Below, in pieces: positions 380-60,243 of a stretch of 61,954 nt of DNA. The notes beneath the pieces were generated by a model. It ran no database searches and was not told the origin of the DNA. It saw only the letters and a program-made list of their open reading frames with translations. Positions within the stretch are counted from its first letter, which is position 1. Every line of letters starts with the position of its first letter. The stretch covers positions 1 to 61,954 of IMG/VR virus record IMGVR_UViG_3300037840_000222. One strand, written 5' to 3'. The position numbers and the translations under genes are program-made. The stretch comes from a virus (Duplodnaviria > Caudoviricetes).

Positions 380-748
380 TCATGCTTCACCCACCTGTAT
401 CACTCCGTCAGTCTTAGGAATTCCATTAATGGAATTTTTCTTCTTTGCTTCGACTTGTCTATTTATCTCGTCCTGTTGGATCAATTCTTTTGGGGAATAG
501 GGGTCAGGAAGGTCTCTAAGGAACCGCCAGTTACAGTCCCGCGAACAGAAATTATACACCTTTTGTGGTTGAGAAAGGTCGGACCGCTCTTCATAATTCG
601 GCTGCCAGTTACAAGCCTTATAGTATTCATCCGGCATCTGTTCCGGGTCTTGACTAACTGCCGCAGGACTCCAAGCTATCCTACATGCCTGTCCGTTCTG
701 GCCCTTGGTACATTTTATGTAATCACATATTACGCCGTTAATAATCAA
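380..748 (-). CDS. hypothetical Cys-containing protein
   Basis: 122-aa ORF in the minus-strand gene block; contains a palindrome-encoded SINGI. Confidence 0.55.
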   Translation of the reverse strand: MIINGVICDYIKCTKGQNGQACRIAWSPAAVSQDPEQMPDEYYKACNWQPNYEERSDLSQPQKVYNFCSRDCNWRFLRDLPDPYSPKELIQQDEINRQVEAKKKNSINGIPKTDGVIQVGEA

Positions 749-899
749 TCAGTTATCTCCTCTACACAATCAACTCTAAAATAAGGCTCTCGATTCCTTA
801 GGATCGATACTGCGATTTTTTGCGCCCATTCTTCTGTAGTGGCGGCTACTTCGACCATCTCTTGATCTGGATAAGATAAAAATACCCTGTATTTTTTAA

Positions 900-1382
900 T
901 CACGCCATCATTTCCTTCAATTCTTTAAGGGCTTTCTCTTTTTCCCTATGCACCCAGTATCTATCTTTACCATACAGTTCCCCAATCTCAGTTTCTGTGT
1001 GCCGAGTTGTACCACCTAATCCGAAAAACGATTCCAAGATAAATTGATGTAGTGAAGAGAGACTGTTTAAACATTCAATCGCTTTGGTAGCGTCTATTAG
1101 AATATCGACTGATGGCTGACGAATTTGCTGGCGGTCTATTTTTTTCACAACTCCCGGATCAGATATATCTTCTGTGTTAGGTGGACGGATTCGGAGAGAA
1201 TCGATAATAGTATTCCGGATAATAATATAAGCTAGCCGAGGGCTATTGATCTTTTCTCTATTCACAAAAAGAGCGAGGTTCGCCTCCTGCCTCAAGTCTT
1301 CCTTATCCTGCCAAGGAATCCTACGGGCGTATTTATAGATGACTTTTTCTATTAGTTCGTCGTATTTACTATTTTCGCCCAT
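900..1382 (-). CDS. phage sigma-70-like RNA polymerase sigma factor
   Basis: Region-2-like DKEDLRQEANLAL and region-4 HTH TETEIGELYGKDRYWVHREKEKALKELK. Start at MGENSK (1382) is more plausible than 1454. Confidence 0.8.
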   Translation of the reverse strand: MGENSKYDELIEKVIYKYARRIPWQDKEDLRQEANLALFVNREKINSPRLAYIIIRNTIIDSLRIRPPNTEDISDPGVVKKIDRQQIRQPSVDILIDATKAIECLNSLSSLHQFILESFFGLGGTTRHTETEIGELYGKDRYWVHREKEKALKELKEMMA

Positions 1383-1518
1383 TCGGCTTCCAGTCTTTGT
1401 GTCTCTTCCGTTTGTTGAACGATTCCGACTTTTGATACTTGGCACCCGGTGCAATACATACTGGGATCGCCGTCAGTTGTTCCATTATAAAGTCCATGAG
1501 GGCATCTAGGTATCGACA

Positions 1519-3120: not shown

Positions 3121-4167
3121 TCATATCTTCATACCCGCCATAAGTAATCTTTTTTCTCCGGCTTCTATAAGGAACGGACTTCCTGATCCGTTCACCTTGA
3201 ATATAATGGTATCACAACCGCGAAGAGTTGTCAAGTGTTTTTTTAAGAAATTTTCATTCACCCCTATTTTAAAACAGACTGGCTCATCGAAAGCGTCTGG
3301 AACAATTGGGGTATATTCGATCTCATGTTTTGCCGACCCCTCCGAGTTTTTACAGGAAAGACCGAGAACATCGCCCTTGAAGTCAAATATGACAAGAGGC
3401 TTTTCCTGATCGACGGTGGGGGATAGAAGGGACAGTGCTTCCTGCAATTCATCAGTTTTGATCTCCACTATTAGTTTATAGGATTTAGGAATTACTTTTT
3501 GGATATCCGGAAAAGGCTTTGTCAGTTTCTTTGTCCAGACCGTTAACTCGTTTGTTTTAAAGAAGATACAGGAATTGGATTCTGAAATCTCTATATCTGA
3601 TTCTAAATCTTTAATGGCTCGGACGATCTTGGAAGGGATGAGAAATTTGATCCCGGCTTCGATTAACATTTCTGCCGTCATGAAGGCTATTCTTAGATTG
3701 TCCGTGGCTGTAGCTTTTAGAGTATGGATTCCGATTTCCAGATGAACCGACCCCGTATGGTCGAACCGAACGCCGTCAGTCGTGACTGAAGAGGCATAGG
3801 CCAATAGGTCGTTTAAAATCTTACCAGACAGCTTAATTCCATTAATGGAATTTTGGGGAACCTCTGGGGGTTTGTCTTTCAGAATCGGGATGTCGGCTTT
3901 GAACTTTCCGCTACGGATGGTAAGCGGCTTGCCTTCCTCCCAACTTATGGCGGCGTCTTTTGTCAGTTTAGAACATATGGAATTGAACAGACGGCTGTTC
4001 ACCATAAGTCTATTCTCTGCCTTAAACAAATCTGACGAGATTACTATCCCCATATCCCCGTCAGAAACAGAGAGACCCTCGCCCCCGATACAGGTGTCGG
4101 TACTGGCTACGGTCGAAAGTCTCTTCACCAACTGTTTTAGATGGCTGGCAGAGATAGAAAGATTCAA
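3121..4167 (-). CDS. dnaN: DNA polymerase III beta-like sliding clamp
   Basis: 348 aa; ATATDNLRIA and KPFPDIQKVIP match the beta-clamp ATDG.RLA and G.FP.Y..VIP motifs. Confidence 0.85.
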   Translation of the reverse strand: MNLSISASHLKQLVKRLSTVASTDTCIGGEGLSVSDGDMGIVISSDLFKAENRLMVNSRLFNSICSKLTKDAAISWEEGKPLTIRSGKFKADIPILKDKPPEVPQNSINGIKLSGKILNDLLAYASSVTTDGVRFDHTGSVHLEIGIHTLKATATDNLRIAFMTAEMLIEAGIKFLIPSKIVRAIKDLESDIEISESNSCIFFKTNELTVWTKKLTKPFPDIQKVIPKSYKLIVEIKTDELQEALSLLSPTVDQEKPLVIFDFKGDVLGLSCKNSEGSAKHEIEYTPIVPDAFDEPVCFKIGVNENFLKKHLTTLRGCDTIIFKVNGSGSPFLIEAGEKRLLMAGMKI

Positions 4168-5125: not shown

Positions 5126-5133
5126 TTTACTCC

Positions 5134-5688: not shown

Positions 5689-7577
5689 CTGAACAACCTC
5701 TCCGGTTCTTTTTCTCTAGTAGTTGGGAAGAACGTACATACGTCCCCGTCAAACATCAATTCTGTATATGCATTACCAATTCCTAAATTTCTCCCCTTCT
5801 GTAAATAGACTTTGGTAAGCCGTTCATACGGTTCCCGTGGCGGTTTATCAGGATTGTCTATAGGGGCAACATCCCTGTGAATCGCATAGGCAGCATCGCT
5901 TGCGCTAATCAGCATCTCAGAACCCTTAGCGTCGGTTATGTGAATCGGCTTGCCTTTCATGGTGGAAAGAGCTTTGCGAGGTTGCCCCAGGTTAAACCAT
6001 TTGGTGCCGAATTTTTGGCTTAGGGATTTGATTCTATTCATCGCATTTTCCTGAGCCTTAATAGGGTCTTTTTCATTCACTGTTACGAAATGAATAGTAT
6101 CGAGAATAACGGTCGTTGCGCTGCTTCGCCGTATCGCTGCTTCGATTACATCTAACACCCCCATGATATCAGGAGTGTCGTTATTTCGTCCTATGTAATA
6201 CCGGGTATCAGACAGGAGCAGACCGGCTCGATCATAATCTTCTGGTTTCAGTTCGTGTCTGTTTTTATTTAGAAGGTAGGAAACGACGATTTGGTTGTAC
6301 TCTTCGTCAGATAATTCTGCGCTGTAGTTTAGAACTATCTCTCCACGTTTAACGGCCGCGTCTATGCTAGCATTCATCATCAGAGTGGACTTCCCCATCC
6401 CAGTTTGCGTGGCTGATAAATAAACCACTGACCCCGGCATGATAGTCGCCATCGCATCCATTTGTGGCCAGGGCCAGCGCCACCTGTACGGACTGTTTTC
6501 CGTGTCAATCCGCTGCCCGCGTTTAAGGTTATCTTTTAAATTAGAGAAGCCGGGTACTAAAATTTCTTTCGCCTTCACGGTTAGGCTCTCCACCAAATCT
6601 CTAAAGGCTGAGATGTCTGACTTACTGGCTTCAAGGAATAGTTGATTAGCGTCTTTTATCCCTTCTGGCCACGTCAATTTATAAACTCTTTCCTGAATCT
6701 CCCGAAGGGCTTTGTCCATATAATCAGACCCAGTTTGGTCGTTATCCCCGGCTAAGATTATACAATCGGCTTCTAAGAGTTTCTCCTTGTTGGCTGCCGT
6801 CAGAGGAGTTGAAGAGGATTGAACAGAGACGCACCTGAACCCCGCCTGTTCCATTGTTAAACAATCTATCTTACCCTCTGTTACGTATACGGCGTCCAAG
6901 GGTTCGATTGTGTCGGAGTTGAAGAGGGGAGTTGAGTCCCCTTTGGCCATACCGGATTGTCGGCAGAACTCTTTTTGGAGGATAGATCGGTACTCGATTG
7001 CGAGAACTCTTTCTCCTGAGACCGAAGGTAACGATATCCAGCCGCCGCCCGACACCATTGAATTGGCGGAAAGCCGTCCCACATCCTGCCTAAAACCGAG
7101 ATGCATTTTCTTAGCAGTTTCATAATCTATCCCCCTAGATTTTAACCAGTCTCGCCCGGCTTGACTTTCTTCTAAAGCCTTTTCGTATGTAGAATATTCT
7201 TCGAGTGAGTAAGAGACGGCCTTAGAATCTTTTCCATTAATGGAATTGAAAATCTTATCAGCAATTTTAGTCTTAGAAAACTTCTCACCGATTCCGAGTT
7301 CTGTTTTTGCTTTTCCCACTGCGTCAGGGAACTCCAGATTATCGAACTTTGTTATAAAAGAGATCACATCACCGCCAAAATTGCAGGCTCCAAAACATTT
7401 CCAATACCACCCGCCATTATAACTAATTACTTTGAATGACCCGGTTTTCTCGTTGTGGAAGGGACAGATCGCCGTGTAGTTTTTATCGGTTCCCTTCTTT
7501 AAACTAATCCTAGATGAGTAGAGGGGGAGTGTTCCGGGGTGGTTTTTTATCTCAATTACGTCTTTAGAATCAAACAA
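5685..7577 (-). CDS. DNA primase-helicase (CHC2 zinc finger + TOPRIM + DnaB-like SF4 helicase)
   Basis: CPFHNEKTGSF...CFGAC zinc finger; TEGKID and GDND TOPRIM motifs; Walker A ATQTGMGKS; ILDTIH. Confidence 0.92.
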   Translation of the reverse strand: MFDSKDVIEIKNHPGTLPLYSSRISLKKGTDKNYTAICPFHNEKTGSFKVISYNGGWYWKCFGACNFGGDVISFITKFDNLEFPDAVGKAKTELGIGEKFSKTKIADKIFNSINGKDSKAVSYSLEEYSTYEKALEESQAGRDWLKSRGIDYETAKKMHLGFRQDVGRLSANSMVSGGGWISLPSVSGERVLAIEYRSILQKEFCRQSGMAKGDSTPLFNSDTIEPLDAVYVTEGKIDCLTMEQAGFRCVSVQSSSTPLTAANKEKLLEADCIILAGDNDQTGSDYMDKALREIQERVYKLTWPEGIKDANQLFLEASKSDISAFRDLVESLTVKAKEILVPGFSNLKDNLKRGQRIDTENSPYRWRWPWPQMDAMATIMPGSVVYLSATQTGMGKSTLMMNASIDAAVKRGEIVLNYSAELSDEEYNQIVVSYLLNKNRHELKPEDYDRAGLLLSDTRYYIGRNNDTPDIMGVLDVIEAAIRRSSATTVILDTIHFVTVNEKDPIKAQENAMNRIKSLSQKFGTKWFNLGQPRKALSTMKGKPIHITDAKGSEMLISASDAAYAIHRDVAPIDNPDKPPREPYERLTKVYLQKGRNLGIGNAYTELMFDGDVCTFFPTTREKEPERLFR

Positions 7578-8466: not shown

Positions 8467-8493
8467 TCCGGGTCTCCTTTCCATTAATGGAAT

Positions 8494-11495: not shown

Positions 11496-12485
11496 TCATA
11501 AGTTTTCTCCTGTCATATCCTCTAACCAATCATCTTCTTCCATTAATGGAATTTGTTTAAAATTATCCGGTAAAGAGATTGGTAAAACATTTACCGAATA
11601 TCCCGGCCAAGAATCTTCCTCTACACATTTTTTATATACACGAAGTAACCTTCGATATTCCTGACGGCCAACCTCCAACATTTCTTTCGTTGGAAAATAG
11701 AGGGCGCTGGCGTAGGGGATATGTTTCTCCCAGGCTGCGAATACAAATGCCTCAACCGAGTATCCTAGAGCCTCTAATCCGTCTGTATACATCGCGGCCT
11801 GAACGTAATACCGATATTTGCTGACTGATCTTTGAAAGCCGTCAGGACTAGCATCCGTTGTTGATTTTAAGTCTACGATTATCACCCCAGTTGAATCTTT
11901 ATCGATTGGACCGTTTGTCAACCAGTCAATTCGGCCTTTACACGGAACCCCTGTGTCTTTATCTGTCCAAAAAATAGACTGTTCAGCCTGTCCCGTTTTA
12001 AACAGTTCCGATGCGGCCGGGTGTTTTTTTACTCTATGAGTGACAGCTTTACACACTCTCCAGTCGGGAATAGACAGAACTTTTTTTCCATTAATGGAAT
12101 TTTCGTAGATGTCATCCCAAAATTTGTACTTGTCGGACGCCGATTTAATCGCCGTTTTCAGTACCGGCTTGGTTCCGGAGACCGGCAGACCGAGTTCCTT
12201 TGCCGCCCGTTTATAGTCTTCGGCTAGATCGAGCGCTCCCGGATAGTCTTTTATATCTGGCTCGCAGACAAAATCTTTTTCAAACCGCTCCGGTTCTAAG
12301 ATAGAAATGTGGAGGGCGTTCCCTAGCTCTCTTGCGGGCGTTACCTTCTGCGGCCCTCGAAGGGGGTTCAAATAGAATGACCAACAATGAAGCGGACTAA
12401 TAGACAGGGCATCTAAAAGATGCTTTGAAGCCGCTGGAATCGATTCGTATTGTTCGAAGGGAATGGTGTAGATGCCTTCAATCAT
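11496..12485 (-). CDS. RecE/ExoVIII-like PD-(D/E)XK exonuclease (DUF3799)
   Basis: LGNALH, EQSIFW, CKGRID, VDLKST and YYVQAAMY motifs. Confidence 0.9.
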   Translation of the reverse strand: MIEGIYTIPFEQYESIPAASKHLLDALSISPLHCWSFYLNPLRGPQKVTPARELGNALHISILEPERFEKDFVCEPDIKDYPGALDLAEDYKRAAKELGLPVSGTKPVLKTAIKSASDKYKFWDDIYENSINGKKVLSIPDWRVCKAVTHRVKKHPAASELFKTGQAEQSIFWTDKDTGVPCKGRIDWLTNGPIDKDSTGVIIVDLKSTTDASPDGFQRSVSKYRYYVQAAMYTDGLEALGYSVEAFVFAAWEKHIPYASALYFPTKEMLEVGRQEYRRLLRVYKKCVEEDSWPGYSVNVLPISLPDNFKQIPLMEEDDWLEDMTGENL

Positions 12486-12946
12486 TTACTTCTATACCGT
12501 AGTTTTCTAAATATTTCCGAATTATTTTCACTGCCTCTGGTATCGGATCAAAAATAGTTCTAGACCCGTCTTCATCTTCACTTCCTGGTATCTCGTCCTG
12601 TAAATTTAAATCATGACAGATATCCTCAATTTGCCACATCCGAAGTTTTATCATTCTCCCTCCAGCGGGTCTATGGCTTCCACTATTCGCCATTCTTCGT
12701 ATTCGTATTTCCGTCTCGCGGTTAGAAGTTTCTCGGCATCTATATGGCTGTCTAAAAGTGCCGCGTTGTACCATTCTTTTTGTTTTGTCGGCAATTCATC
12801 GAAGTCATAGACTTGCCATTCAGTTCGGAGATAGTTGAACAGACGAAGAAACGCTGACTGTCTTTTCAACGGAGTAGAGATATCCCATATCATGTCATCT
12901 TGTTTACGATTGCCGTAGATTAGTAGTTGCATTAGTTTCCTTTCCA

Positions 12947-13498
12947 TTAATGGAATTCTAAATAAGACGCCATCACAGCGATATGAAAACAATAAGGCTC
13001 GACAGCGAACTCGATTACCCCTCTATTCCTCATATCAATTAAATACTTCTTTATCCAGGTTCGTTGTTTTTTATTGTACTCCCGTTTGGCCAGATCAACA
13101 GTGATCCCTGCCGTGTGGGAGGATAGATTTTCAGGAGCGGCGAAGCGGTTTGTTCTCCGCAGTTCCCGTTGCTGTTCTACTGTCCTAACGGCGGAATTAA
13201 CCGTAATAGGGCGTCCAAAAAGATCATAGAAAGTGCTAGCCATATCCTGAATAAAAACTTTAGCCCACGGTCTAACGTATTGTCGGTCTTCTCGAATGTG
13301 AGCAGCCAGTTTAATTTTTTCATCATTGGGAAGCCTCACTAGTTCCCCACTCTGTTCCAATTGGTGGAGTTGATTATTATCTACTATCCTTGGCAGATTT
13401 AGGCTGTCTATTTCCTGGTTTTGTCTAATCATAGAAACAGACGAACCGGGTTTAGGGTGGGGGTGGTGGGCCATCAAGAAGAGTAAGATTAGCCACAT
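12947..13498 (-). CDS. DUF5715 / peptidase M15-like protein
   Basis: NSAVRTVEQQ...SSHTAGITVDL...E..CFHI, a LAS-type zinc-peptidase pattern; hydrophobic N-terminus. Confidence 0.7.
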   Translation of the reverse strand: MWLILLFLMAHHPHPKPGSSVSMIRQNQEIDSLNLPRIVDNNQLHQLEQSGELVRLPNDEKIKLAAHIREDRQYVRPWAKVFIQDMASTFYDLFGRPITVNSAVRTVEQQRELRRTNRFAAPENLSSHTAGITVDLAKREYNKKQRTWIKKYLIDMRNRGVIEFAVEPYCFHIAVMASYLEFH

Positions 13499-14844: not shown

Positions 14845-15777
14845 TTATCCTTTAATCAATTCTCCTATCGTTCCTGCCTTAAGAGCGTCTTCTAGAACGG
14901 GGATAATCTCATCAAACTGTTTCTTGGTTATCTGGGTATAGAGACAACCGGCTTTCTTTTGAAGGTATTCTTTCAACAACCGAGAGTCTTGTTTCAGCGC
15001 CTTCAGTCTGGTTCCGTAAGCCGTTTTTTCTAACGGAGTCGGAAGTGGGCTATCCGGTTTAGGTAGATCAGCGTCAGACAAAGGACAGCCGTCAGCATCA
15101 GCATTCGGAACTTGGACTGGTTTTTCCATTAATGGAATTACCGACTTAGTCGGAATTTCCGGTGTAGAGAAATCTTGTTGAGCGAGTCCGACTGGCCTAT
15201 TGGGCAGACCGCCGATAAACTGGCCGCCCTGTCCGAATCGTTTTGGCTGTTCTGACGGCTTATCTTGGTTTACTAATCCATTGCCGTCGTCATCTTCTGT
15301 TGCTAGGTTTAATGCACGAGTCTCGGCGTACCGAGCTAGGTATGTAAATGCAATACCGATTGTCTGGGCATCATACCTGCTCCCACCCTCTTTCAATTTT
15401 TGGTCAGCAGGACAGCCTGAGATAGTCATCTCTATAAACCCACCTGATATGTGGGAGATAAGAGTGACGATACCGGCAGTTCTATCGTTATTTATAAATG
15501 GCGCTTGAAAAATATAAATTCCGGCTTCAGCCAATTGGTCGGCAGTGTTGCCGATAATTTCTGAGATGTCGGCGTACTTTCTATTCTTTCCTTTGGCATC
15601 TTTATAGAATGGATTTTCGGCAGACTTCTTAATTACTCCGAATTTTGGTCTAGCTTCGCACATCGCTTTCGTAACAGCGGCTAACCCTTCCGGGCTTGAC
15701 GCTCTGATGGCGACTGTTGGTTGGAAGCCATCAGGGATTTGTGGTACTTTTTCTAGTTGTATTTCTGGTACTGACAT
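14845..15777 (-). CDS. ERF-family ssDNA annealing protein
   Basis: ENPFY..KYAD, AQTIGIAFTYLARYA and EDDDGN motifs. Confidence 0.9.
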   Translation of the reverse strand: MSVPEIQLEKVPQIPDGFQPTVAIRASSPEGLAAVTKAMCEARPKFGVIKKSAENPFYKDAKGKNRKYADISEIIGNTADQLAEAGIYIFQAPFINNDRTAGIVTLISHISGGFIEMTISGCPADQKLKEGGSRYDAQTIGIAFTYLARYAETRALNLATEDDDGNGLVNQDKPSEQPKRFGQGGQFIGGLPNRPVGLAQQDFSTPEIPTKSVIPLMEKPVQVPNADADGCPLSDADLPKPDSPLPTPLEKTAYGTRLKALKQDSRLLKEYLQKKAGCLYTQITKKQFDEIIPVLEDALKAGTIGELIKG

Positions 15778-18560: not shown

Positions 18561-19499
18561 TCATGCCTTAACTTTTTTACAATATTCCATCAATAAAGCC
18601 GTCAGGGCGGTCAAATCAACCCCCGATTCAAACGCCGTATAAACCGCCAACCCTTTTGCGAGGGACACACCTGCCTCTATCATACTACCAGATAATTGTT
18701 TTTCTGTCAAGAGCAAATATCGTAGCTGACCGGAAACCGCCGTTCTTAGCCCCTTAGCATCAGCAGCCTTCATTTTCAATAACTTAGGGAATAGATAAAA
18801 CCAGTTCCCTTTTAAAGCAACGGTGGCTATTTCTCCGTACACCGGATCAGACTCAGAAGATTGAACAGCTTCCCTTGGCGACATGCCGTTCGCGTACAGC
18901 TCAACGGCGTTTATAATTGCTCGACCGGAAGTGATATCGTATTCTTCGATGAATTCCATTAATGGAATTAGCGCCCGTTCTGTATCGGTAAGGTTCCACG
19001 TCCGTTCAACTAATTCGGCTCGATCTTTTCCCTCTATTCCCTTCAAATTGAAGGACATACATCTATCTCTTAACGGCTGAAGAAGACCTGAGATTTCAGT
19101 AGTTGTAATAATAACTATGACAGGGAGATCGGTTTCCTCTAGAAAATCTAATAAGGCGGATTGAGCGGCTCCGGTTAACTTCTGACCTTCATTTAGAATA
19201 TAGATTTTAAAATTTCCTTGTAACGGATGATATCGAGAATCCGAGATCAGTTTCCTAATTCTATCCACCCCAGTCTCGTCTCCGCAATTAATTTTTTCTA
19301 TTTCAGGAGAGTCTGTTTGGCAAAGTTCTTTGGCTAGAATTTCAGCCAAGGTTGTCTTTCCTACCCCAGTTGGACCGGCGAAGATATAGCCATTAGCATG
19401 CTGGCCGGATGAGAGATGGTTTTTAAGGGCTTTGACAGTTTCGGGTTGCCCAATCACGTCGTCGAAGGATTGGGGACGCATTTTGAGGGCGAGATTCAT
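18561..19499 (-). CDS. dnaX: clamp-loader AAA+ ATPase (Pol III gamma/tau-like)
   Basis: LALKMRPQSFDDVIGQ, GPTGVGKTT, AAQSALL and RDRC motifs. Confidence 0.88.
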   Translation of the reverse strand: MNLALKMRPQSFDDVIGQPETVKALKNHLSSGQHANGYIFAGPTGVGKTTLAEILAKELCQTDSPEIEKINCGDETGVDRIRKLISDSRYHPLQGNFKIYILNEGQKLTGAAQSALLDFLEETDLPVIVIITTTEISGLLQPLRDRCMSFNLKGIEGKDRAELVERTWNLTDTERALIPLMEFIEEYDITSGRAIINAVELYANGMSPREAVQSSESDPVYGEIATVALKGNWFYLFPKLLKMKAADAKGLRTAVSGQLRYLLLTEKQLSGSMIEAGVSLAKGLAVYTAFESGVDLTALTALLMEYCKKVKA

Positions 19500-35650: not shown

Positions 35651-35676
35651 TGAACAGACCTTTTCATTAATGGAAT

Positions 35677-36320: not shown

Positions 36321-36646
36321 TTCCATTAATGGAATTAGTAATGAAACCAAGAATTTGTAACTTCGAGAAATACTTGTTTCTCGCGGCCAGCCTTTTTATT
36401 TTCCATCCACTCCCGGTTAGCTTCGTGATTCCGCTTACTTTTCTTTGGCCCTTTCCATCCACCGCGCTTAGGATGGCGCATTTTCATTGTTCCGTTCATT
36501 TCTACCCTCTCTTCTTCGGCCTCTCCCATTTAAGAGCGGGCTGGCCGTTGGTTAGTTTAAACTCTCCTACTCTTGTTCCACGTAGGAGTCTAGCGTCTCT
36601 TTTTCTTTGGGAAATAGTTTTAAAGATTCGTTTCATGAACAGGCTC

Positions 36647-36910: not shown

Positions 36911-36949
36911 CGTGTTCCCCTCTCTATTCCATTAATGGAATTAAAACAA

Positions 36950-38487: not shown

Positions 38488-38937
38488 AGAAATTCCATTA
38501 ATGGAATAGAGTTAGCGACACACTGGATTCTTTGGTGGCCACGGTTCGAACCGCGAGAAGTTTTTCTGTAATGGTGGTTTTTGTTGTTCTTTTAGATAAT
38601 CATTAACTGTTGGCAGAGCATCACGGAAACAATGGCTATGGCGAAGAATAATACAACCATGAGCAACTATCCAACGTTTTCTGGTAATTGAAAAATAGAC
38701 TCTCACTTTCATCCAATCGCCATTACGGGTTTTTACTCTATTCACTCAGCACACTCCTATTCTGATTACCAAGTTGATAAGACACGGTAATGTTGTTAGT
38801 GATCTCTTGATTAATAGACTGAAAACCACCATAGAGATGATAGAGATCTTGTGAAACGGTTTGGATACTTGTTTAAACAGTTTATCTATCATCGAACCTC
38901 CTTTGCCGCCTATAGACGGCAGAATCAGAAAATGTCA

Positions 38938-39100: not shown

Positions 39101-39397
39101 CAGCGCCGGTTAAAAGCGGTAACGGTTTTAACTAGCGGAATCGCTGTCCTTTAAAATCGTCCGCTGCGGATTCGACCCTTTCAGGGAATGAGTCGCATTC
39201 GTGAGCTTTCCGTGCGATTTAAAGCGTTCGGCGTTCGAAATGACCTGGGCTACATACTTTTCCGAGAATCGCTCATATCGAATCGTGGCGACAAAAACTC
39301 ATTTCTTCACCGAACTTCATCGAACTTTACAAACCATGATGGCGCTCTCCTGAGCTATTCCATTAATGGAATAGATTAAGACAACGCCATAAAACAG

Positions 39398-40467: not shown

Positions 40468-41272
40468 AGTAAAACCCTCCACTGGAAATTCCATTAATGG
40501 AATTCCCTAGCAAAATTTTACTTGGGATGAGCCAATTGATAGATGGCCCAACGTTTCGCTAAACCTTTGGAAATTGGCGTCTCAGATTCGGCTCTGATAA
40601 TCCGAATCAATTGCTGGCGTCTCGCACGTCTTGCTTTTTTCTGTTCAGTCATAAAACCCTCCCATAGAGCTAGTCCATTAAGAGAACAGACTAGCCTAAT
40701 GGCAAGATTTTAGCCAAATAGATGCTCTGGTATCCAAAGCAAAATATCATCGGCCATCATTGCTCTATAACCTCCGCATGGACAAAAAAACATGCCGCTA
40801 AATGGAACACTTCCGCAAGATTTTCCGCATTGTGGGCATGTCTTAGGGTTTTCGTTTGAATTAGGAAAACCCGCCACTATAAATTCAGGCGTAATACTTC
40901 CCTTGCCATAAGCCATCTGTTTACCTCATTTCGATTGAACTGGTTTAGTCATTCCGGCATATGGACAGGCAACGGAACAGTGATAACATGGGCAGCTATC
41001 GGGATGTTTATAGCAATTACAAACAGGCTTACGCTTTTGCTTTTCTCTGTTCATCTTACCTCCAAACCTGTGAACGGTCTTTTGGTTGTGGTTTACCACA
41101 AACGAAGCATGTTGTCTTAACCAGTCTCCGATTGCGTCTATGTTGATTCTTCCAAAGTGAGCCGCAAGGCTTACACTGGCGTTTTCCTAATCGCATGGTG
41201 GAATCGAGTTTTGTCATAAATCCTCTAATTAGGACACTCTATTCCATTAATGGAATGTCCTAAGTGCAAGAT

Positions 41273-41719: not shown

Positions 41720-42305
41720 AAAACCCTCCTGAATACCCTATTGCATTGGGTGTTTCATTGGACGTGCCCTCGTGCTGTGATGTTTTCGCATCAATTCTAT
41801 GCAAGCCTCTTCAGGTGAGGAGTAAAGTTCCCTGTGGGGTGAAGTGCCGTCTTCCATATACCAACAAAATTTGCTTATATAAACCATTCGCCCCAAATAA
41901 GGGACTAAAATCTCTGTTTTGAGTAAAATCAGATTACTGGTACTATAATCATAATCTGCACTCGTATTACGAACTTCCGCTGTCGCATAGATATAGTCTT
42001 CCATAAACCCTCCACTAGGCAGATAATTCCATTAATGGACAGATTATCTGCTAGGTGCAAGGTTTATTGGGCAAACTTGCGCCGGTACTGCTCTTTCCAA
42101 TCCCTGATGGCAAGTTCAGGGCGGGAACCTGAGCCACAGATACTGTCTAGATTGTTTCCAATCCAATCTGTAGTAACATAGCATTGCCATGTCTTACCGC
42201 ATTGTTTCAGATTATACGTCAAACTTCTGAAAAGTTTTCGTCTGTTCTCCATAAATCCTCCACAAAATAGGGGAACGATATTCTGTTCCCCTAGTCTAGC
42301 AGGAT

Positions 42306-42713: not shown

Positions 42714-44150
42714 GTCTATTCTCCATAAATCGCTGATTTTAAAGGGATTCAGCCAACCCTGATTAGAGGCATTGAATGCCTCAAGGGAAACAGATGAAAA
42801 ACTGTTTGACGCGGGACTATCCCGTTGGTCTGGATGACAGTATAGCAATTCTCTGTTCCCCCTGAGATATTCAATTCCATTAATGGAATTGAGGTTTTCT
42901 CTGTTCACTTAGCAATAGCTTACGCGGTACATACCGCGCTATCTGGCTGATAACCAGCGTAACACAAAATCTGCGAGTGTTTCCGTTGATTCCCGTTCTC
43001 TTTTCGGCCATTTCTTTATTTTCATCTAATTCCCTTTCCTTTCAGCCAGATACAGAGCGTACTCTAATTCCTCTTGTTCTCTGTTCAGCCTGTTCTTGAC
43101 GGCTTGATTGCCGCTAATGTCTATCCGATATTGGAGTGAATCAATTCTGTTCACTAACTCTTGTTGGTTCATCGCTATGCACCCCGTAAGCTATTGCTTT
43201 GGTTTTGCTTGTTCTATTCACCATTGACGGCTGCTATCATTCCCGCTACGGTTCATCTCCGTTGAGTACAGAGGGGAAAGTTATAAGCGAATTCCATTCC
43301 GTCTTTGGTTTCGGGGGTTTTCTCTCCCCCTGTGTTGGTTACTATCAGCCATACTCTGAAAACTAGTCCGATTGCCGTCTATTCAGGCTGCTTTCCCGGT
43401 CATGGCTGTTAGCTCTCGGTACTTGCTCGGTGATCGTTTTCAGCGGCTTGTTCTGTTCGCCGTTCCCGCTTGCCGTTTGGAATCTGCCGCGAACGAATGC
43501 AGGTTCTCATGATCGCGTTTCAGAGTCAAGTTAAGAATTGTAAAGCACCGTAAGTCGTTGAAAACAAAGCGAAAAAACCGTGAAAAAAGTTTTGCGGCAG
43601 GGATTCGCGGCTATTTTTTAGGTTTAGTTATACTGTGTGGCATACAGTATTCGTTCGAACGTTCGTTCGGTTGTGTTTCCTGACCAAACCGCTGGTTATA
43701 ACCGTCATCCCCAATCGCAATAACGGCAATCGCAAACAAAAACCGTCACTTTTAACACAGAAAACTGAAAAGCTAAGTGCTTTAGAATCAACATCCGATG
43801 CCATCTGCTCACCGTATAGCTGAACGTCATAGTAGTTGTTCTCTTTCCCTCTCTATAATCTATCCCTAGGGAGTAACATTAACTTCTAGATAGCCTAGGG
43901 GGAGGGGGAAGCCCCTTTGGGTTGGGAGGGGAGGGGTTTAGTGACCTGGCGATACCTCCTTCCTTTTCAACCACTTACAAGCCATACAATAATAATCCTT
44001 AATTTCCCACCACCTTTTTCTTTTTAGGGACTCCAAAACCATAGGTACCCTTTGGAACCCCAAAAGGGACTCCTTTTTAATAGAGGGTGCTACCTACGGA
44101 AAAATAACCTCTCCCGGCCACCAAATGTTAATTAAATAATAACATGAGCA

Positions 44151-44804: not shown

Positions 44805-44857
44805 ATTAGTTTAACCGATGCCGGATGAGAAAGAAGTTACCCGGACGGTTTTCGATT

Positions 44858-44936: not shown

Positions 44937-45443
44937 AAATTCCATTAATGGAAACGAAGCGAAGACCGGATCGCATCTGGTCGTGGTGGGTCGCACTCGC
45001 CGTTCCTAAAACGTAGTGGGGATCATTGATCCAGCCCCTCCCTCTAGTGAGGGCTGGTGTTACCAACAATCTACGATACGGGATTGGGCCTGAAAAACCC
45101 AATCCGCTAAACGGCATACACGCGGTATGATAGGGTATAAATTTTTAGCGGCGCTGAAAAATGAAGGCGGGGTGGCATCCCCTAGCGACTCAGAAGAGTA
45201 CTAAAGCGCCCACAGCCGCTAGACGCGATTAGGAGAATAGATGGATGGTTACGAGTATCAAATACCTTCGATCAGCAGCAACTCAATAACATTGGGTACG
45301 GACGAAGGGGTTCACAAGGAGCAACTTTCTAAACCTCCGAGTGAAGTGTCTATTCGAATTCTAAATTCAATCATTTACGCAAGAGTTCCAGAGTCTAACT
45401 TTTACCGTGACGCCTTAGTAGATTAATTCCATTAATGGAAAAT

Positions 45444-45632: not shown

Positions 45633-46143
45633 ATTATGGCCCAAACACCCCGCTCACCGTCACGGAAAATTGTTCCAGTCAGAGATGAAGAGACTGGTCG
45701 AGATGGGTGCGCTCAAGAAACTTTGGTAAGCCAACCGTTCCCTTTTGTAGAACCTTGGCGCTGTGATAACTGTCTCGAATTGATGTACAATAAAACTCCT
45801 GATGGCTATCCGGCCCCAGGCGCTCCGGTCGGATTAAACATTTCGATTGATGGAAAGAAACTGCGGGTTTGTCTTCTTTGCGCTCAGATGTTTATCTCTG
45901 TTACCCAAAGCGAGTTCTTTAGAGATGAACATAGTAAGTGGGTTAAAGAGATGGAACACCGAAAGAAACTTAGGTCTGGAAGCAATTACTTAGATAGGAA
46001 AGACTAATTCCATTAATGGAAATCTTTATATTAGGCTTTGCGTTCGGAGTGCTATGTACTGTAGTCGGTCTTGCAATTTGGTCTAGACTAGGTTACTGGG
46101 GTTCAAATTTCTGAAGTGGCTTGAAACACATAAGCACCTAGCG

Positions 46144-47651: not shown

Positions 47652-47812
47652 TTCCATTAATGGAATGCTGGCATAAGTTTGACGCAATAAATAGAGGGTT
47701 GAGATGTCGTTTCTGTGGCCACCTATTACCTCTGGTAAGTTTTAAAGGGATGGAAAATCCGCCTGCCAAAGAGCCGGTAGCTCCCTGTAGAAAATAATTT
47801 AAGGAAAATAAT

Positions 47813-50833: not shown

Positions 50834-51245
50834 TATTTAAGATAGTCTGTACAAATATAAGGCCGGGTGAGTTCTATTTCAGAACCCCGGCTCAGACTTA
50901 AGGATTAAAATGGCTAAACGTGGTGAAAAGGCTATGGGCGGGAAGAAATCCGCCTCCAAGTCTAAAGGGAAGAAAAGCGGCAAACATGTTCACGAGATTG
51001 TGCTTCGTAGAGCGAAATCGGGAGAACTGTTGGCTAAACATCGGCACATGAGTAAGTCGGGTGAACCGGCTATGGAAGATGAGGAACACGTAGTCGCTCC
51101 TGGCTCATTAGACGACCATGTGGAACAGCATATGCCTATGCAGCAAGAAGAACAAGCCCCGGCTCCTGCCGGTGCCCAACCTAACCCAATGGGTGGCGGG
51201 GCAATGATGGGTGGAATGTAATTCCATTAATGGAATCGAGATAGC

Positions 51246-55678: not shown

Positions 55679-55693
55679 TTTAAAGGAATAAAT

Positions 55694-56332: not shown

Positions 56333-56640
56333 TAAGTTCGGGTATTGGAAGGCTCCCGGCTTTGCTGGCAAGGGATAAGGTGGTACGGCAGTACAACCTC
56401 CATTAAGCTATCTGTAGTGGACAGCGCCCGATAACTTTTTCCATTAATGGAATACTTTGAAACTGAGGAAATGTAGATGGGCTGGATGGAGGAAGTTAAA
56501 GCGAACGAGAAACACGGTCTTTTAAATTCCGTGACGGCTTTGATGCATCAGGAAAGTCGGGCTTCCGGCCAACCTGATCTAACAGTAGATCAGATTACTA
56601 AACTCCATCAATTTATTCAAGGTGATCGATCTGTTCTTTA

Positions 56641-57342
56641 ATGTTTACTATATACTGTATAACTAATACTATCAATGGTAAGAAGTATGTTGGTCAGACA
56701 TCTCGTAATATTAAACAGCGATGGTGGGAGCACCAGTCTACTGCTCGCTACGAAGATACCTTATTTTCTAGGGCGATTCGTAAATACGGTCAAGACGCCT
56801 TCGAAATAAAAGAGATAGATCGAACCGAAGACGAAGATGTAGCTTCTTATCGGGAAATGTTTTGGATAACAGTTTTAGGGACATACCGAGACTACGGTTA
56901 TAATAGTGATATTGGTGGTTCGGGTTACTACCAACCTAGCGAAGAGACTCTTCGGAAACGAAGTGAATCTTTGAAAAAGGGCTATGCCGAAGGGCGCGTT
57001 ACTTGGTGTACCCGTACTGATTTGGATGACAATAAGATTGCAGAGATGTATCTGAACGGTTTGAGCCAACGTGCGATAGCGGCTCAACTAAATACATCGA
57101 AAAGAACGATTGCGGTTAGGTTACATAAACTGAACGTACCGCAGCGGGATAAGATCGATCCTAACCGGGTAGGCTATATTTTTACTCCGGAGACTAGGCA
57201 GAAAATGCGAGATGCTAAACTTTCCGATCCTCTGACCGCCGAGCGGTGTCGTAAGATGACTAGAGAGCGGATAGAGAGGAGAATAGATGGCGGTTCTCGA
57301 TCCCCAAGTAATAGACCCGCACCGACCGATATTAGAGTCTGA
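56641..57342 (+). CDS. free-standing GIY-YIG homing endonuclease
   Basis: TIYCITNTINGKKYVGQT...R...H...E..WI...GYN; HTH/NUMOD-like C-terminus. Confidence 0.9.
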   Translation: MFTIYCITNTINGKKYVGQTSRNIKQRWWEHQSTARYEDTLFSRAIRKYGQDAFEIKEIDRTEDEDVASYREMFWITVLGTYRDYGYNSDIGGSGYYQPSEETLRKRSESLKKGYAEGRVTWCTRTDLDDNKIAEMYLNGLSQRAIAAQLNTSKRTIAVRLHKLNVPQRDKIDPNRVGYIFTPETRQKMRDAKLSDPLTAERCRKMTRERIERRIDGGSRSPSNRPAPTDIRV

Positions 57343-59595
57343 AGCTAAAGCGGCGTTGTCAGATGGGTTGTTTGAAGACGATCCAAGTTTAATATTGGTT
57401 TTAGCGGACACGTTAAAAGCCGAAGCATATGCTGGTACGAAGTCGTGGGTAAACTAAAGCTGCCCACTTTAAATTTCTCCTGATTAAGCTGAACCCTGTG
57501 ACGGGAACAGACTGCAAGCAACCGTATGGTGGGCAGCAGTAGAGACTGAGCGGAGAAACTCCTAACGGAGATGCGACAGTCCGGACTAACGGGAATCAAA
57601 CCGTTAGAGGTAGACAGAAATGATCTACCCTTTCCATTAATGGAATGTAACAAGTGAGCTTTCTGGCCGCAAGCCTCTGTTCTTTATCAATCCCCCTTCG
57701 AAGCTAAATACTGGGAAAACACTTTCGTACCCCGTGCTTCGATTCCTTTTTACACTCTAGCCACTGCGGTAAACAGCCTTGTTCCGAAAGTAATGCAAGG
57801 TCTGTTTTACGAGAATCCTCCTTTTCTGATTCAGAAAAGACCTAAGACTTCCGAGAAGGCTGCTCAAGCCATCGGAGCCATCATTGGGTATCAACTCGAA
57901 GATGAGGATATGGAGTTCCGTCGTGAAACAGAATTAGGCGTTCGTAATGCTATTCTATTTGGTACTGCGATTTGGAAGTGGGGATGGGAGATTTTCACTC
58001 GTGAAAAGAAAACCTATCAGCAGAAATCTGAACCCCTTAAAATCCCTAATCCTCTCAGCGGCTTGGGGCAGGACTCGATAGAGATTCACGGTGACGATGA
58101 CATTGAAGAAGTCATCGAAGAAGAATATATAGATAGACCGTTTTTTAATCACATCCCTAATCTTAGGGAAGTGTTGGTGGCTCCGACTCTCAGAATCCCC
58201 GACATCCGTAAGGCGAAGTATGTTATTCACCGGATGTTTCTCAATTTCAAAGATTTAGATAAACTGCGGGATCGTCCTGGTTATAAAATACCGTCAGAAG
58301 ACGAACTGATTAGTTTGTTCTTTCCCCCGAAGGAACAAGTAGAAACTCCTCTGGGAGAGATGGCAGCACGTAATCCCCTTTGGGATTTGAGGGCGCAGCC
58401 TCGTAACGAAGAAGATTCAGAAGACCCGTTTAGCAAACCATTAGAGGTTCTGGAACGGTGGGATAACGAAACTTGTATCGTCGTTCTCCAAAAGAAATTA
58501 GTTCTGTGTAATGATAAGAACCCTTATGGGAAGATTCCGTTTTTGTCTGTTAACTGGTGGGATATCCCCGAAGCATTTTATGGGATGGGTTTGGCAAAAA
58601 CAATCGGGCAGGAACAACGTCTTCAACAGGGTATTACGGGTACTTGGTTAGACAACGCATCTTTAAACCTTAACGGTGTTTATGTCCGTACACTCGGTAA
58701 AGGTCAGCAGTCTCAGTCTATCCGTATAATGCCGGGTAAAGTTGTTAACGTAGAGTTAGATGCTAACGGCAAAGGCGATTTCAAACCCCTAGAACGTTTA
58801 CCGGCTGTTCCCGAAGCGGCGGAACATATTGCGATGTCTCAGGCTCGTGTAGAGTTGAACAGCGGTGCTAACGAAGTTACTGCTCAGGGGATCGCAGGTA
58901 ACGCCGCCCACAGTAATATGGGTCGTACTGCGGCGGGTGCTAACTTGATTGGTGCTGGTGCTGATTCTCGCCCACAGGATTTTGTAGAAAAATTTGTATC
59001 TCAGGTCTTTATTCCATTCCTCTACGAAGTGCAGGAAATGGATAGACGACTGTTACCCAAAGAAACTATTAAGTACATTCTCGACGAAGAGTTGGAACAT
59101 GCTTATTTCTCTGAGGGCGGGTCTGTAACCGAACTGTTAAACGCTCGTATTAAATTCTCAGTACTGGCTGGGGCTAAGATGCAGGCGCGTAGACAAATGG
59201 CACAGGCGATGCCACTTCTCATACAATTATTGACGAACGAGCAAACTACTAAGCAATTGGGTATTCAGAAAAAGAAAGTTAACGTAGCTGCCATCCTTGA
59301 AGACTTCATCGAAGTATCAGGTTGGAAAGTTCGTAACGATTGGATTCAGGATATGACTCCTGAAGATGAAAAGCGGTATATGGCTCAGTCTCCCGCTGCC
59401 CAAGTCCAAGCTAAAGCCCAGGCTCAGGGTCAGTTACAGCAACAACAACATTCGAACAAACTAGAACTTATCGATCAGGAAAATTTGAGTCGTGCTGGTA
59501 GAGAAGTTTTAAGGCACACTATGGAGCAAGCAGAGACTCCGGAGGCAACGTTTGGTTCCCCGGCTAGCGGAGCAGGCTTTGGTGGATCATTTTAA
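57287..59595 (+). CDS. portal protein, spliced (exon 1 57287-57450, exon 2 57657-59595; about 700 aa)
   Basis: GAGGAG RBS + ATG at 57287; splicing gives ...TKSWV-AFWPQ... in frame with ORF 57793; portal-like FGTAIWKWGW and NPYGKIPF motifs; follows TerL. Confidence 0.85.
57451..57656 (+). ncRNA. group I self-splicing intron without an ORF, 206 nt
   Basis: P1 GTGGGT/GCCCAC with U.G at the 5' splice site; P7 GACTG/CAGTC; P10 AAAGCT/AGCTTT; terminal G; removal restores the frame. Confidence 0.9.
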
Positions 59596-60243
59596 ATGAG
59601 AACTAAAACCTGCTCTCAATGTAATGTTGAGAAACCCATCAACCTTTTTCGACAAGAGAAAAGAACTAAAGACGGCTATCAAGCTAGGTGTAAAGCGTGT
59701 GAAATGAAGTACAAAAATGAGCATAAGACTTTACCTGAGAGTATAGATAAACGCCGCAAAGCTGATGCTAAACGAAAACTATCTTATTTAGATTTATACA
59801 CAAGTAATCCAGACTTAATCGATAACGAAAAGTACTGCCCACGATGCGACCAGGCTAAAGAAGCGATTCACTTTAGTAAAGAACTTCGTCGTAAAGGTGG
59901 TCTTAAAGATTATTGTAAAGTCTGTGAAAGGGAGATGTGTAAAAGTAGATATGATGAATTAAAACAATTGGTGTTTCAGAAATTAGGTTGGAGTTGCTGC
60001 CGATGCGGATATCACGATGTTCGCGCACTCCAGATAGACCACGTTAACGGCGGTGGTAATAAAGAACATAAACAAGTAAAGAATAGTCTTTCTTTTTTAA
60101 AGAAAGTTCTTACTGACGATAAAGGGAGCTATCAAATTCTCTGTGCTAACTGCAACTGGGTTAAACGTCACGAAAACAAAGAAGAGCCTTTTTATACCCT
60201 AAAATTAACCGATTCCATTAATGGAATTACAACCTGCCGATAG
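59596..60243 (+). CDS. HNH-like endonuclease with tandem CxxC zinc repeats
   Basis: Two CxxC...F......DG....CK.C repeats, then CCRCG...LQIDH...LCANCN. Confidence 0.75.
   Translation: MRTKTCSQCNVEKPINLFRQEKRTKDGYQARCKACEMKYKNEHKTLPESIDKRRKADAKRKLSYLDLYTSNPDLIDNEKYCPRCDQAKEAIHFSKELRRKGGLKDYCKVCEREMCKSRYDELKQLVFQKLGWSCCRCGYHDVRALQIDHVNGGGNKEHKQVKNSLSFLKKVLTDDKGSYQILCANCNWVKRHENKEEPFYTLKLTDSINGITTCR

Follow-up and report, generated by a model that had tools for sequence, protein, structure and literature searches.

Genome-wide arrays of a single DNA word have already been described in bacteriophages and, apart from stoperators, are unexplained. The closest case in print is the repeat of the Cluster O mycobacteriophages, a 17-bp palindrome (TGTTCGGNNNCCGAACA) present in Corndog as 34 invariant and 3 one-mismatch copies, for which the available part of the original account suggests a dimeric regulator, names no binder and regards a promoter role as unlikely (PMC4351075). 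That repeat has been without an assigned function since 2015. Here we describe an array of this kind in a virus of the Caudoviricetes, IMG/VR record IMGVR_UViG_3300037840_000222, a linear sequence of 61,954 b (CheckV completeness 56%) that was analysed as a whole and is referred to as the window. Its word is the 14-bp even palindrome TTCCATTAATGGAA. What is new in the window is the recoding of essential proteins by substitution to accommodate the word, the filling of gaps between other copies, and an indication that relatives carry another word at the same places; none of the three is reported in the available part of the Cluster O account (PMC4351075).

The two arrays are alike, as far as that part goes, in having more than 30 nearly invariant, dyad-symmetric copies spread genome-wide over intergenic gaps, gene starts and gene interiors, and in not occurring in host genomes. 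They differ in the word itself, which in Cluster O has a 7+3+7 layout with a free centre and here is an even palindrome of other sequence, and in the actinobacterial, high-G+C host of Cluster O. Kinship is not indicated, given that the window word differs from TGTTCGGNNNCCGAACA and that the best matches of the RecE-like protein of the window in the phage collection lie below 38% identity, with no mycobacteriophage among the 20 best records listed.

The stoperators of phage L5 reportedly go back to original work by Brown et al. in 1997, and the co-evolution of repressor and stoperator in Cluster A is said to have been studied. Together with their immunity repressor, the stoperators of Cluster A and Cluster CA actinobacteriophages form the closest understood system (PMC13313380). 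In the available portion of that source they resemble the array described here in comprising at least 25 copies of a 13-14 bp word, in both arms and either intergenic or at gene termini, in a word that differs between related groups, and in an orientation tied to transcription, which in the window appears only as a flank bias. Stoperators are, however, asymmetric, strictly oriented and found in temperate phages with a known repressor, whereas the window has a perfect palindromic core and six copies deep in genes. Moreover, no repressor-like family was found in this 56% complete record, nor was the tyrosine-integrase domain PF00589 in a six-frame search, serine recombinases not having been searched.

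A further comparison is with sites that load a partition-type protein. At sites of this class, the palindromic operators of KorB among them, the bound dimer goes on to spread or slide over kilobases in a CTP-dependent way. The ParB site parS (TGTTTCAC-GTGAAACA) and the Noc-binding site, NBS (TATTTCCC-GGGAAATA), are related cases, and NBS is spread widely over the genome, according to the part of the source at hand (PMC7383237). All are scattered palindromic sites of 14-16 bp, and the core of the window word, 14 bp, is often 16 bp (18 exact 16-mers). The half-sites show a likeness that we treat as a lead only (parS has GTTTCAC where the relative discussed below has GTTCAC, and NBS has ATTTCC where the window has ATTCC). 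The spacer between the halves here is 1 nt in the 17-mer of that relative or 2 nt when the window word is read as an 18-mer, unlike that of the ParB and Noc sites, and a six-frame search of the window found neither ParB_N (PF02195) nor HTH_ParB (PF17762), of which the missing 44% could hold one.

Repetitive extragenic palindromic (REP) elements are likewise numerous, short and intergenic, and roles in mRNA stability and DNA topology have been proposed for them (PMC3733652, PMC8266576). In the accessible parts of these sources, REPs are imperfect palindromes of 20-40 nt, tagged with GTAG/CGTC, tied to RAYT transposases and not recoded into genes; the flanks in the window have no GTAG/CGTC tag and the 14-bp palindrome is perfect. 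T1-like phages such as TLS carry intergenic direct repeats whose function is unexplained and which their authors likened to stoperators (PMC11447400). They share with the window the repetition of a word between the genes, in that case of a virulent phage, but the available text describes direct, oriented repeats up to 76 bases upstream of starts, not palindromes and not within genes. The conserved inverted repeats of phiC31 are presumably a related case, on which a literature search gave nothing useful. Literature searches for palindrome arrays in phages led to Cluster O, the stoperator papers and TLS. Searching with the motif strings themselves returned no phage-context match, one string matching only four papers on human serpins.

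A genome-wide array of one palindromic word

The existence of the array is confirmed. The 31 exact and 5 one-mismatch copies of TTCCATTAATGGAA reported in an earlier note on this DNA were recovered at exactly the positions given there, and far exceed the chance expectation (mean 0.04, maximum 1, in 100 dinucleotide-preserving shuffles). Matches with 0, 1, 2 and 3 mismatches number 31, 5, 2 and 3. Chance would supply about 5.4 matches within this tolerance, compared with the 41 observed, and the sharp fall-off marks the word as all-or-none. The half-sites alone remain at chance level (TTCCATT 9 against 9.6 expected, AATGGAA 3 against 4.5), all 14 positions are fixed, the centre included, and compensated pair changes occur in none of the 36 copies, which together fit base-by-base reading of the dyad by a dimer. 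The frequent extension to an 18-mer (AATTCCATTAATGGAATT) claimed earlier was overstated, the exact 18-mer occurring five times and the exact 16-mer 18 times. The gap sizes are as previously given, with a maximum of 5217 nt and values of 3059-3830 nt in the replication block.

An artefact of a single assembly is excluded by the presence of the word in Logan contigs of a second run from another study. In all, the window stretch is present in Logan contigs of two soil-metagenome runs from two studies, with word shares of 0.98 and 0.81, and the second-run contigs span at least 5 sites (27549, 28690, 34469, 39358 and 42027) with zero differences; no RNA run was listed among those that contain the stretch. 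The contigs of the two runs provided no usable polymorphism across copies; the sole difference within a copy, 40498 T>C, has a depth of 4.4 and is 31 nt short of a contig end. The loose ends at 27544, 28706, 32384 and 42889 belong to other contigs of the same samples, which share a copy and a few flanking bases and then diverge, and two of these run on as flanks of sites in L186, an IMG/VR contig of 8,089 b with 5 exact copies and 1 one-mismatch copy. The tetranucleotide usage of L186 correlates with that of the window at r=0.908, compared with 0.805-0.945 for 8-kb pieces of the window itself. L186 shares no window protein except for one 34-residue match to an open reading frame (ORF), which lies within a 116-nt stretch (L186:6492-6607) that is 77.6% identical to 57541-57653. 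It is probably a missing part of the genome of the window or a close co-resident relative.

The copies are listed below without a strand of their own, and each is read in the direction of the local genes.

421..434, exact: as NSING, within 18 codons of the end of unannotated ORF 380-748 (-), whose status as a gene is uncertain
3837..3850, exact: deep in the DnaN-like clamp gene 3121-4167 (-), as NSING; relatives have SSLSE/SSLSG, no indel
7232..7245, exact: in the primase/helicase gene 5685-7577 (-), as NSING; the closest homologue (60% identity) has SSLSG
8479..8492, exact: 1 nt past the TAA of 8494-8709 (a paralogue of 'gene X')
11538..11551, exact: C-terminal tail of the RecE-like gene 11496-12485 (-), as IPLME; next start 38 nt on
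12086..12099, exact: deep in the RecE-like gene, as NSING; homologues have QTFG, LVGN or LVAG, no indel
12942..12955, exact: its own internal TAA is the stop of 12947-13498; next ATG 9 nt on
15124..15137, exact: in the Erf-like gene 14845-15777 (-), as IPLME, C-terminal to the Erf domain
18954..18967, exact: in the clamp-loader gene 18561-19499 (-), as IPLME
22704..22717, exact: intergenic; TGA stop 9 nt before, ATG 14 nt after
24150..24163, exact: intergenic; TAA 11 nt before, ATG 12 nt after
26359..26372, one mismatch (TTCCATTAATAGAA): last 10 codons of 26342-26557; next ATG 13 nt on
26569..26582, one mismatch (TTCCATTAATAGAA): TAA 3 nt before, ATG 11 nt after
27549..27562, exact: abuts TAA; ATG 14 nt after
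28690..28703, exact: 1 nt past the TAA of 28705-29808; ATG 11 nt after
32367..32380, exact: abuts the TAA of 32381-32608; upstream of an 847-residue gene
33380..33393, one mismatch (TTCCGTTAATGGAA): inside the 79-residue ORF 33249-33488
33635..33648, exact: abuts the TAA of 33649-33795
34469..34482, exact: 5 nt past TAA; 13 nt before the ATG of 34087-34455
35662..35675, one mismatch (TTTCATTAATGGAA): 1 nt past the TAA of 35677-35892 (a paralogue of 'gene X'); ATG of the PP2C gene 11 nt on
36321..36334, exact: abuts the TAA of 36335-36499; a short hairpin follows
36927..36940, exact: end of a 589-nt non-coding stretch; ATG of 36647-36910 16 nt on
38493..38506, exact: between the converging GIY-YIG gene (+) and 38512-38745 (-); terminator-like hairpin 38488-38460 just after
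39358..39371, exact: past the terminator-like hairpin 39433-39402; ATG about 20 nt on
40489..40502, exact: apex of the inner hairpin of a cassette that pairs an anti-Shine-Dalgarno box with a Shine-Dalgarno (SD) sequence; ATG 21 nt on
41242..41255, exact: between inverted-repeat arms (ttaggaca / tgtcctaa) in such an anti-SD/SD cassette; ATG 24 nt on
42027..42040, one mismatch (TTCCATTAATGGAC): hairpin apex of a cassette; ATG 22 nt on
42875..42888, exact: palindrome 4 bp longer on each side, a 10-pair stem in the terminator scan when G-T wobble is counted (TTCAATTCC..GGAATTGAG)
44940..44953, exact: 7 nt past tRNA-Met (44859-44932), at the head of the + arm
45427..45440, exact: abuts the TAA of 45241-45426; ATG 3 nt on
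46008..46021, exact: abuts the TAA of 45636-46007
47652..47665, exact: abuts the TAA of the lysozyme gene 47214-47651
51222..51235, exact: abuts the TAA of 50910-51221; 10 nt before the ATG at 51246
56439..56452, exact: 24 nt before the ATG at 56477
57632..57645, exact: in a 450-nt non-coding stretch (57343-57792) between the GIY-YIG gene and the portal gene
60213..60226, exact: last 10 codons of the HNH gene 59596-60243, as DSING; next ATG 23 nt on

In-gene copies and spacing

Whereas 26 copies are intergenic, six lie deep in genes (3837, 7232, 12086, 15124, 18954 and 33380) and four in the last 10-18 codons (421, 11538, 26359 and 60213). The in-gene placements that had been noted before are right (DnaN-like clamp 3837, primase/helicase 7232, RecE-like 11538 and 12086, Erf 15124, clamp loader 18954 and the HNH tail 60213), and to these we add the copies in the 79-residue ORF (33380), in a further gene tail (26359) and in the tail of the unannotated ORF (421). 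Two frames of the word are open, and the in-gene copies are read through them as (N)SING or IPLME. Synonymous shuffling of ten long genes gave a mean of 0.71 copies and never more than 4 in any of 1000 rounds, compared with 6 observed; when codon order was shuffled in the same ten genes, 0.009 copies were expected.

Comparison with homologues indicates how these copies came about. Neither of the two RecE copies shows an indel in alignment with homologues of 54-68% identity, which have QTFG, LVGN, LVAG and similar residues opposite NSING and SSLSE opposite IPLME. Likewise, DnaN homologues of 42-48% identity have SSLSE or SSLSG opposite the NSING of the window, again without an indel, and the closest primase homologue (60% identity) has SSLSG. 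The primase copy (7232) stands just N-terminal of the point at which one primase family match begins (residue 123); for the clamp loader no close homologue was found with which to compare its in-gene site. On these alignments the DnaN, RecE and primase copies sit in variable linkers or tails, as the earlier note had anticipated, and the in-gene copies arose by substitution, not insertion.

The in-gene copies also stand where other copies are far apart. Spacing was tested against uniform random placement. With the 4 intergenic sites of the replication block (1-22704) fixed and 6 placed at random, a largest gap of at most 3830 nt was obtained in 0.35% of 20,000 trials (P=0.0035), in a test that was chosen post hoc, after the pattern had been seen. 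With the 29 other sites fixed and 7 random, 3.3% of trials reached the observed largest gap and 0.44% were as even as the array itself. Over the array as a whole, evenness exceeds that of random placement only weakly (P=0.04 by the coefficient of variation, P=0.12 by the largest gap). Taken with the codons given over to the motif, the origin by substitution and the palindrome of a relative described below, the gap-filling supports the previous suggestion of selection for presence and spread over the chromosome rather than for control of single promoters.

Relatives and other carriers of repeated words

The peptides opposite the in-gene copies are themselves alike. Of 18 close RecE homologues, 10 have exactly SSLSE where the window has IPLME, and 2 more have one-residue variants; of 7 DnaN homologues, 4 have SSLSE opposite NSING and one more has SSLSG. 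With the primase place, SSLSE or SSLSG occurs in relatives at 3 of the 4 in-gene places tested. The same pentapeptide at motif-aligned places in unrelated proteins suggests a shared DNA word. Enumeration of all codings showed that a palindrome of 17 nt (AGYTCRCTNAGYGARCT) can encode SSLSEL. For random pentapeptides, a palindrome of at least 13 nt is possible in about 8% of cases (25 of 300). The 17-nt palindrome predicted from the peptide, AGTTCACTNAGTGAACT, was then found in L136, a contig of 1,976 b with a PolA 52% identical to that of the window and the only close-relative DNA examined. There it lies at 1178-1194 as AGTTCACTAAGTGAACT, codes for M-S-SSLSEL at a gene start and overlaps the TAG stop of the preceding gene. 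After PolA and on the same strand, L136 carries genes homologous to gene X, the small ORF 27283-27534 and the clamp loader, and the gene that ends in the palindrome is the homologue of gene X. In the window, both paralogues of gene X have the word 1 nt past their TAA (8479 and 35662).

In the sequences compared, the two words are mutually exclusive: SING or PLME was found at the aligned places in none of 22 RecE and 7 DnaN homologues, and the SSLSE-type palindrome is absent from the window. From the alignments and the enumerated coding we infer that, in RecE and DnaN, the centre of the window palindrome lies about half a nucleotide from that of the putative SSLSE palindrome. Half-sites of the two words resemble each other, agreeing at 5 of 8 positions (AGTTCACT against AATTCCAT), and the spacer is 1 nt against 2 nt. 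Places thus seem to be kept while the word changes, on the evidence of one direct DNA case and three further in-gene places judged from peptides, a pattern that would fit a co-evolving reader.

Gene X itself is present in the window as two nearly identical 71-residue paralogues (8494-8709 and 35677-35892), with a motif copy after each. In run X1 a diverged contig matches 35659-35893, with 12 and 24 differences.

Searches for further carriers of the window word were largely negative. Scans of IMG/VR with the 14-mer gave only single chance matches among the matches listed; the 16-mer gave 48 stretches, of which 47 were single matches and the other was L186 with 4 copies, and the 17-mer gave 49, namely 48 single matches and L186 with 2. 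Among 185,579 bacterial species genomes the 18-mer had 28 single matches in mixed, unrelated taxa, and none had more than one copy. TerL and PolA relatives in IMG/VR and metagenomes were distant (27-44% identity) except for L136, and RecE relatives in IMG/VR were at most 43% identical, bar one partial match of 51% over residues 136-306. Neither the word, with up to 1 mismatch allowed, nor any other repeated palindrome was present in 57 relative loci (877,319 b).

IMG/VR scans with the predicted 17-mers likewise found no array in relatives of the window. Among their 83 matches, 68 (L322-L404, mostly contigs of 1-4 kb) share AGTTCGCTWAGCGAACT, in many cases together with similar flanks. The shared word has no connection with the window phage and may represent a hairpin conserved in some small-virus family. 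L324, L361 and four other loci with 1-2 copies have no clear window homologue, the only match being of 22% identity (E=7e-6). The same scan turned up an unrelated record, G001 (the record of L347; L431-L433), of 59,767 b, 66% G+C and 99% completeness, with weak matches to phages of Arthrobacter, Microbacterium and Streptomyces. G001 carries 38 exact and 3 one-mismatch copies of TTCACT[G/C]AGTGAA genome-wide, often just 5' of an SD sequence, and in an all-ORF BLAST has only SSB in common with the window. The centre of its word is always G or C, 16 times G and 11 times C relative to gene strands that were roughly called from third-position G+C. A centre that occurs either way round fits a reader of double-stranded DNA; an RNA reader could tell G from C. 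Neither a tyrosine integrase nor HTH_3, HTH_17 or HU was found in G001, and its ParB_N ORF at 4629-5159 was dropped as a reader candidate, having no other recognisable domain on inspection.

Placement relative to genes and RNA signals

As the earlier note had it, most copies, about 26, lie between a stop codon and the next ribosome-binding site. An upstream stop is nearby for 20 copies, and in 11 of these a TAA stands 0-1 nt before the word and in 2 the stop is the TAA of the word itself. An SD-bearing start codon follows 9-26 nt past 17 copies, and a few more precede weaker starts. Nothing conserved was found downstream of the copies, and around them there are no target duplications and no larger shared unit, the flanks being only A/T-biased. 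As bare RNA hairpins the copies are weak, at -3.3 to -4.5 kcal/mol with z-scores of -0.08 to -2.0. Intrinsic terminators have a G+C-rich stem and then a run of T; a scan of the 15 copies in 32-48 kb flagged only 42875, which has just 3 G-C pairs, and a terminator reading was set aside. Sigma-70-like promoter matches in the same interval are not enriched (34 against 31.9 expected).

Three copies occur within an intercistronic cassette that recurs in the early region and consists of a stop, a box (aaTCCTGCTAG or AACCCT), a variable inner hairpin, tatGGAGGgttt and an ATG. In predicted RNA folds the box pairs with the SD of the next gene (z-scores -3.5 to -5.2), which suggests translational coupling or SD sequestration for early genes. 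The stretch 28066-28163 has the same box and hairpin, judged by eye. The cassettes folded are as follows.

27767-27819, - strand
32609-32652, - strand
40468-40517, - strand
40653-40709, - strand
41218-41272, - strand
42005-42063, - strand
42253-42305, - strand

In cassettes that do not carry the word the same slot is filled by unrelated hairpins, so that the cassette does not need the word. The apex of the hairpin may simply be the one spot that can take up a DNA palindrome and leave the RNA fold intact.

Genome context and search for a reader

Genes run leftwards from about 44.4 kb, with small unknown genes first and genes for DNA metabolism and replication next, and rightwards from about 44.7 kb, starting with two tRNAs and including an endonuclease VII-like gene. 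The principal genes are these.

Leftward arm: PolA 20468-22528; clamp loader 18561-19499; RNA ligase 16549-17712; Erf 14845-15777; SSB 14129-14521
Leftward arm, continued: RecE-like 11496-12485; primase/helicase 5685-7577; DnaN-like clamp 3121-4167
900-1454, - strand: sigma-70 region 2 protein (match above the Pfam cut-off, E=9e-6), at the distal end of the leftward arm
Rightward arm: lysozyme 47214-47651; TerL 53645-55678
Rightward arm, continued: GIY-YIG gene 56641-57342; portal 57793-59595; HNH 59596-60243

At the switch between the arms, the tRNA at 44859-44932 was found as tRNA-Met only by ARAGORN and that at 44743-44805 only by Rfam (gathering score). Homing-endonuclease-like genes number seven in the 62 kb of the window, with three more in the 8 kb of L186. 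A GIY-YIG homing-endonuclease gene at 15787-16552 (-) is apparently split by a frame change into an N-terminal, GIY-YIG-like part (ORF 16334-16552) and a DNA-binding part (15787-16386, PHROG 314) in different frames. The GIY-YIG gene at 37758-38471 stands beside the 589-nt non-coding stretch 36911-37499, which matches no Rfam family at gathering score and contains a perfect 28-nt inverted repeat (37060-37087/37231-37258) with its arms 143 nt apart. The copy at 57632 had been placed in a group I intron; this is not supported, as there is no Rfam match at gathering score in the whole window or at E up to 1 in 55500-58000. The gene 40000-40467 contains eight tandem 21-bp units (40073-40240, 97% matches) that encode the seven-residue repeat ADWQKAD/Y. 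The window also carries a set of genes of RNA-repair or signalling type, comprising an RlaP nucleotidyltransferase, a metallophosphoesterase, an RNA ligase, a NADAR domain and a PP2C phosphatase (4340-5125, 9426-10076, 16549-17712, 19904-20332 and 34949-35698).

Among the 88 ORFs of the window scanned against Pfam or PHROGs, the only parts that read DNA are the sigma-70 region 2 protein (900-1454) and helix-turn-helix stretches in homing endonucleases. A six-frame search for HTH_3 (PF01381) found it only inside two homing-endonuclease genes. Queries of the ESM Atlas with two basic proteins gave no usable lead. With 44% of the genome missing from the record, the reader may be encoded there.

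Discussion

We propose, with about even confidence, that the array provides docking sites for a dimeric, lineage-specific DNA-binding protein that acts over a few kilobases, and that it tiles the chromosome. Each copy would be a two-fold symmetric docking site on double-stranded DNA for a putative homodimer specific to this phage lineage, and the tiling would follow from the bound protein acting only over a few kilobases. The sites could serve as points where a protein nucleates or loads before spreading or sliding to coat or mark the phage DNA, in the manner of ParB, Noc and KorB, or as repeated roadblocks or silencers of transcription, in the manner of stoperators; we regard spreading or self-marking and transcriptional roadblocks as about equally likely. 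That the reader would be a protein, that it would read DNA and not RNA, and the role it might play are drawn from the pattern of the sites. A dimeric DNA-binding protein had already been suggested in the earlier note and remains the best reading, with no binder among the 88 ORFs scanned or in searches for five DNA-binding families, and the interpretation given there is on the whole partly supported.

A number of observations weigh against this proposal. The scan of the 88 ORFs provided no plausible reader, and the six-frame searches of the window found, besides the absence of the two ParB domains, neither HTH_17 (PF12728) nor HU (PF00216). The all-or-none conservation is tighter than in most operator sets, the gap-filling test was devised with the pattern in view, and the palindrome of the relatives has been seen as DNA once only. 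In about 17-21 copies the word stops just 5' of the ribosome-binding site, with a start codon 3-26 nt on, and the sense-strand flanks are asymmetric, with AA upstream in 24 of 36 and TT downstream in 11 of 36; where only one of the two is present it is AA in 19 cases and TT in 6 (P=0.015), and AA is upstream at all 6 in-gene sites of the replication block. Two of the 5 variants are C-to-U changes in the transcript that keep the pairing as a U-G wobble. Finally, three cassette copies lie within the inner hairpin, 40489 and 42027 at its apex and 41242 with its 5' part paired in the stem of the inverted repeat in the predicted fold.

The asymmetric flanks and the position 5' of ribosome-binding sites keep a reading at the RNA level alive, and this is the strongest of the alternatives, albeit one that we consider unlikely. 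The word would then form a short hairpin, UUCCA-UUAA-UGGAA (up to 7 pairs with AA/UU flanks), in polycistronic transcripts, and an RNA-binding protein or endoribonuclease would read it for processing, stability, antitermination or translation of the next cistron, as with the RNase III sites of T7, boxB of lambda and the RegA and RegB targets of T4. Further points in its favour are that 26 of 36 copies stand in untranslated gaps, that a nearby upstream stop abuts or lies in the copy in 13 of 20 cases with 17 copies placed before an SD-bearing start, that the three cassette copies sit in SD-sequestering hairpins with fold z-scores of -3.6 to -4.4, that the wobble variants keep their pairing, and that the palindrome of the relatives would fold as well, into a 7-pair stem with a triloop. 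The bare hairpin is, however, weak, and there is not one compensatory stem change in 36 copies, the loop itself being self-complementary. Six copies are deep in translated sequence, unrelated hairpins take the same slot in other cassettes, and the word of G001 has G or C at its centre in either orientation, on rough gene calls.

An improbable alternative is that a nuclease, helicase, recombination machine or other processive DNA enzyme responds to the word as a two-way, Chi-like mark of self, which it would have to meet every few kilobases from either direction. It would account for the need for coverage, for a palindrome that works from both sides, and for an all-or-none conservation like that of Chi in a word that differs between relatives, and the phage encodes RecE-like, Erf-like, SSB and endonuclease VII-like proteins. 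No enzyme has been linked to the word, however, and we know of no precedent for a Chi-type signal of 14 bp. A version with two short Chi words placed back to back was set aside, as the half-sites are not enriched.

Less probable again are binding sites for a host protein, used as a sink or decoy or for recruitment. The searches of the window revealed no phage-encoded reader, and the common DNA-binding families searched are likewise missing from G001, which is 99% complete; against this, the 28 genomes with the 18-mer are of unrelated taxa and hold it singly, with no multi-copy genome among the 185,579, and another word at the same places in relatives is easier to understand with a phage-borne reader. 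We think it quite improbable that the palindrome is selfish or neutral and has spread by insertion or conversion, perhaps linked to homing endonucleases, without a phage function. The seven homing-endonuclease-like genes of the window and three of L186 would suit it, and the near-identity of the copies could mean recent spread, but the in-gene copies replace residues one for one with no indel and fill gaps, the places are apparently kept between relatives despite the different word, and there are no target duplications and no larger shared unit. Least probable of all are promoters for a phage sigma factor or host polymerase: a sigma-70 region 2 protein is encoded at 900-1454 and many copies precede genes, but a palindrome would fire both ways, a start codon 3-26 nt away leaves no room for a leader with an SD, nothing downstream is conserved, the six deep copies have no start after them, and sigma-70-like matches in 32-48 kb are at the expected level.

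Returning to the docking of a dimeric protein on DNA, we tentatively extend the proposal, at clearly less than even confidence, to soil phage lineages that would each carry a private palindromic 'name' every few kilobases, put where needed into linkers and tails of essential replication proteins by recoding, and read by a co-evolving protein that spreads or stops processive enzymes. The word would be exchangeable in place (AGTTCACTNAGTGAACT against TTCCATTAATGGAA) and the array would constitute a mark of identity or immunity by which self is distinguished from host DNA and related competing phages, with G001 and Cluster O as independent inventions.

Three features make the question of its purpose testable: selection acts on where the word stands, the interiors of the clamp, primase, RecE, Erf and clamp-loader genes included; copies arise by point substitution; and relatives apparently have another word at the same places. 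The apparent change of word at kept places points to a co-evolving reader and yields two matched pairs of probes. The words would also be convenient lineage markers in metagenomes. If the reader does spread on DNA or block a processive enzyme, the array would represent a new viral way to mark or organise a whole chromosome.

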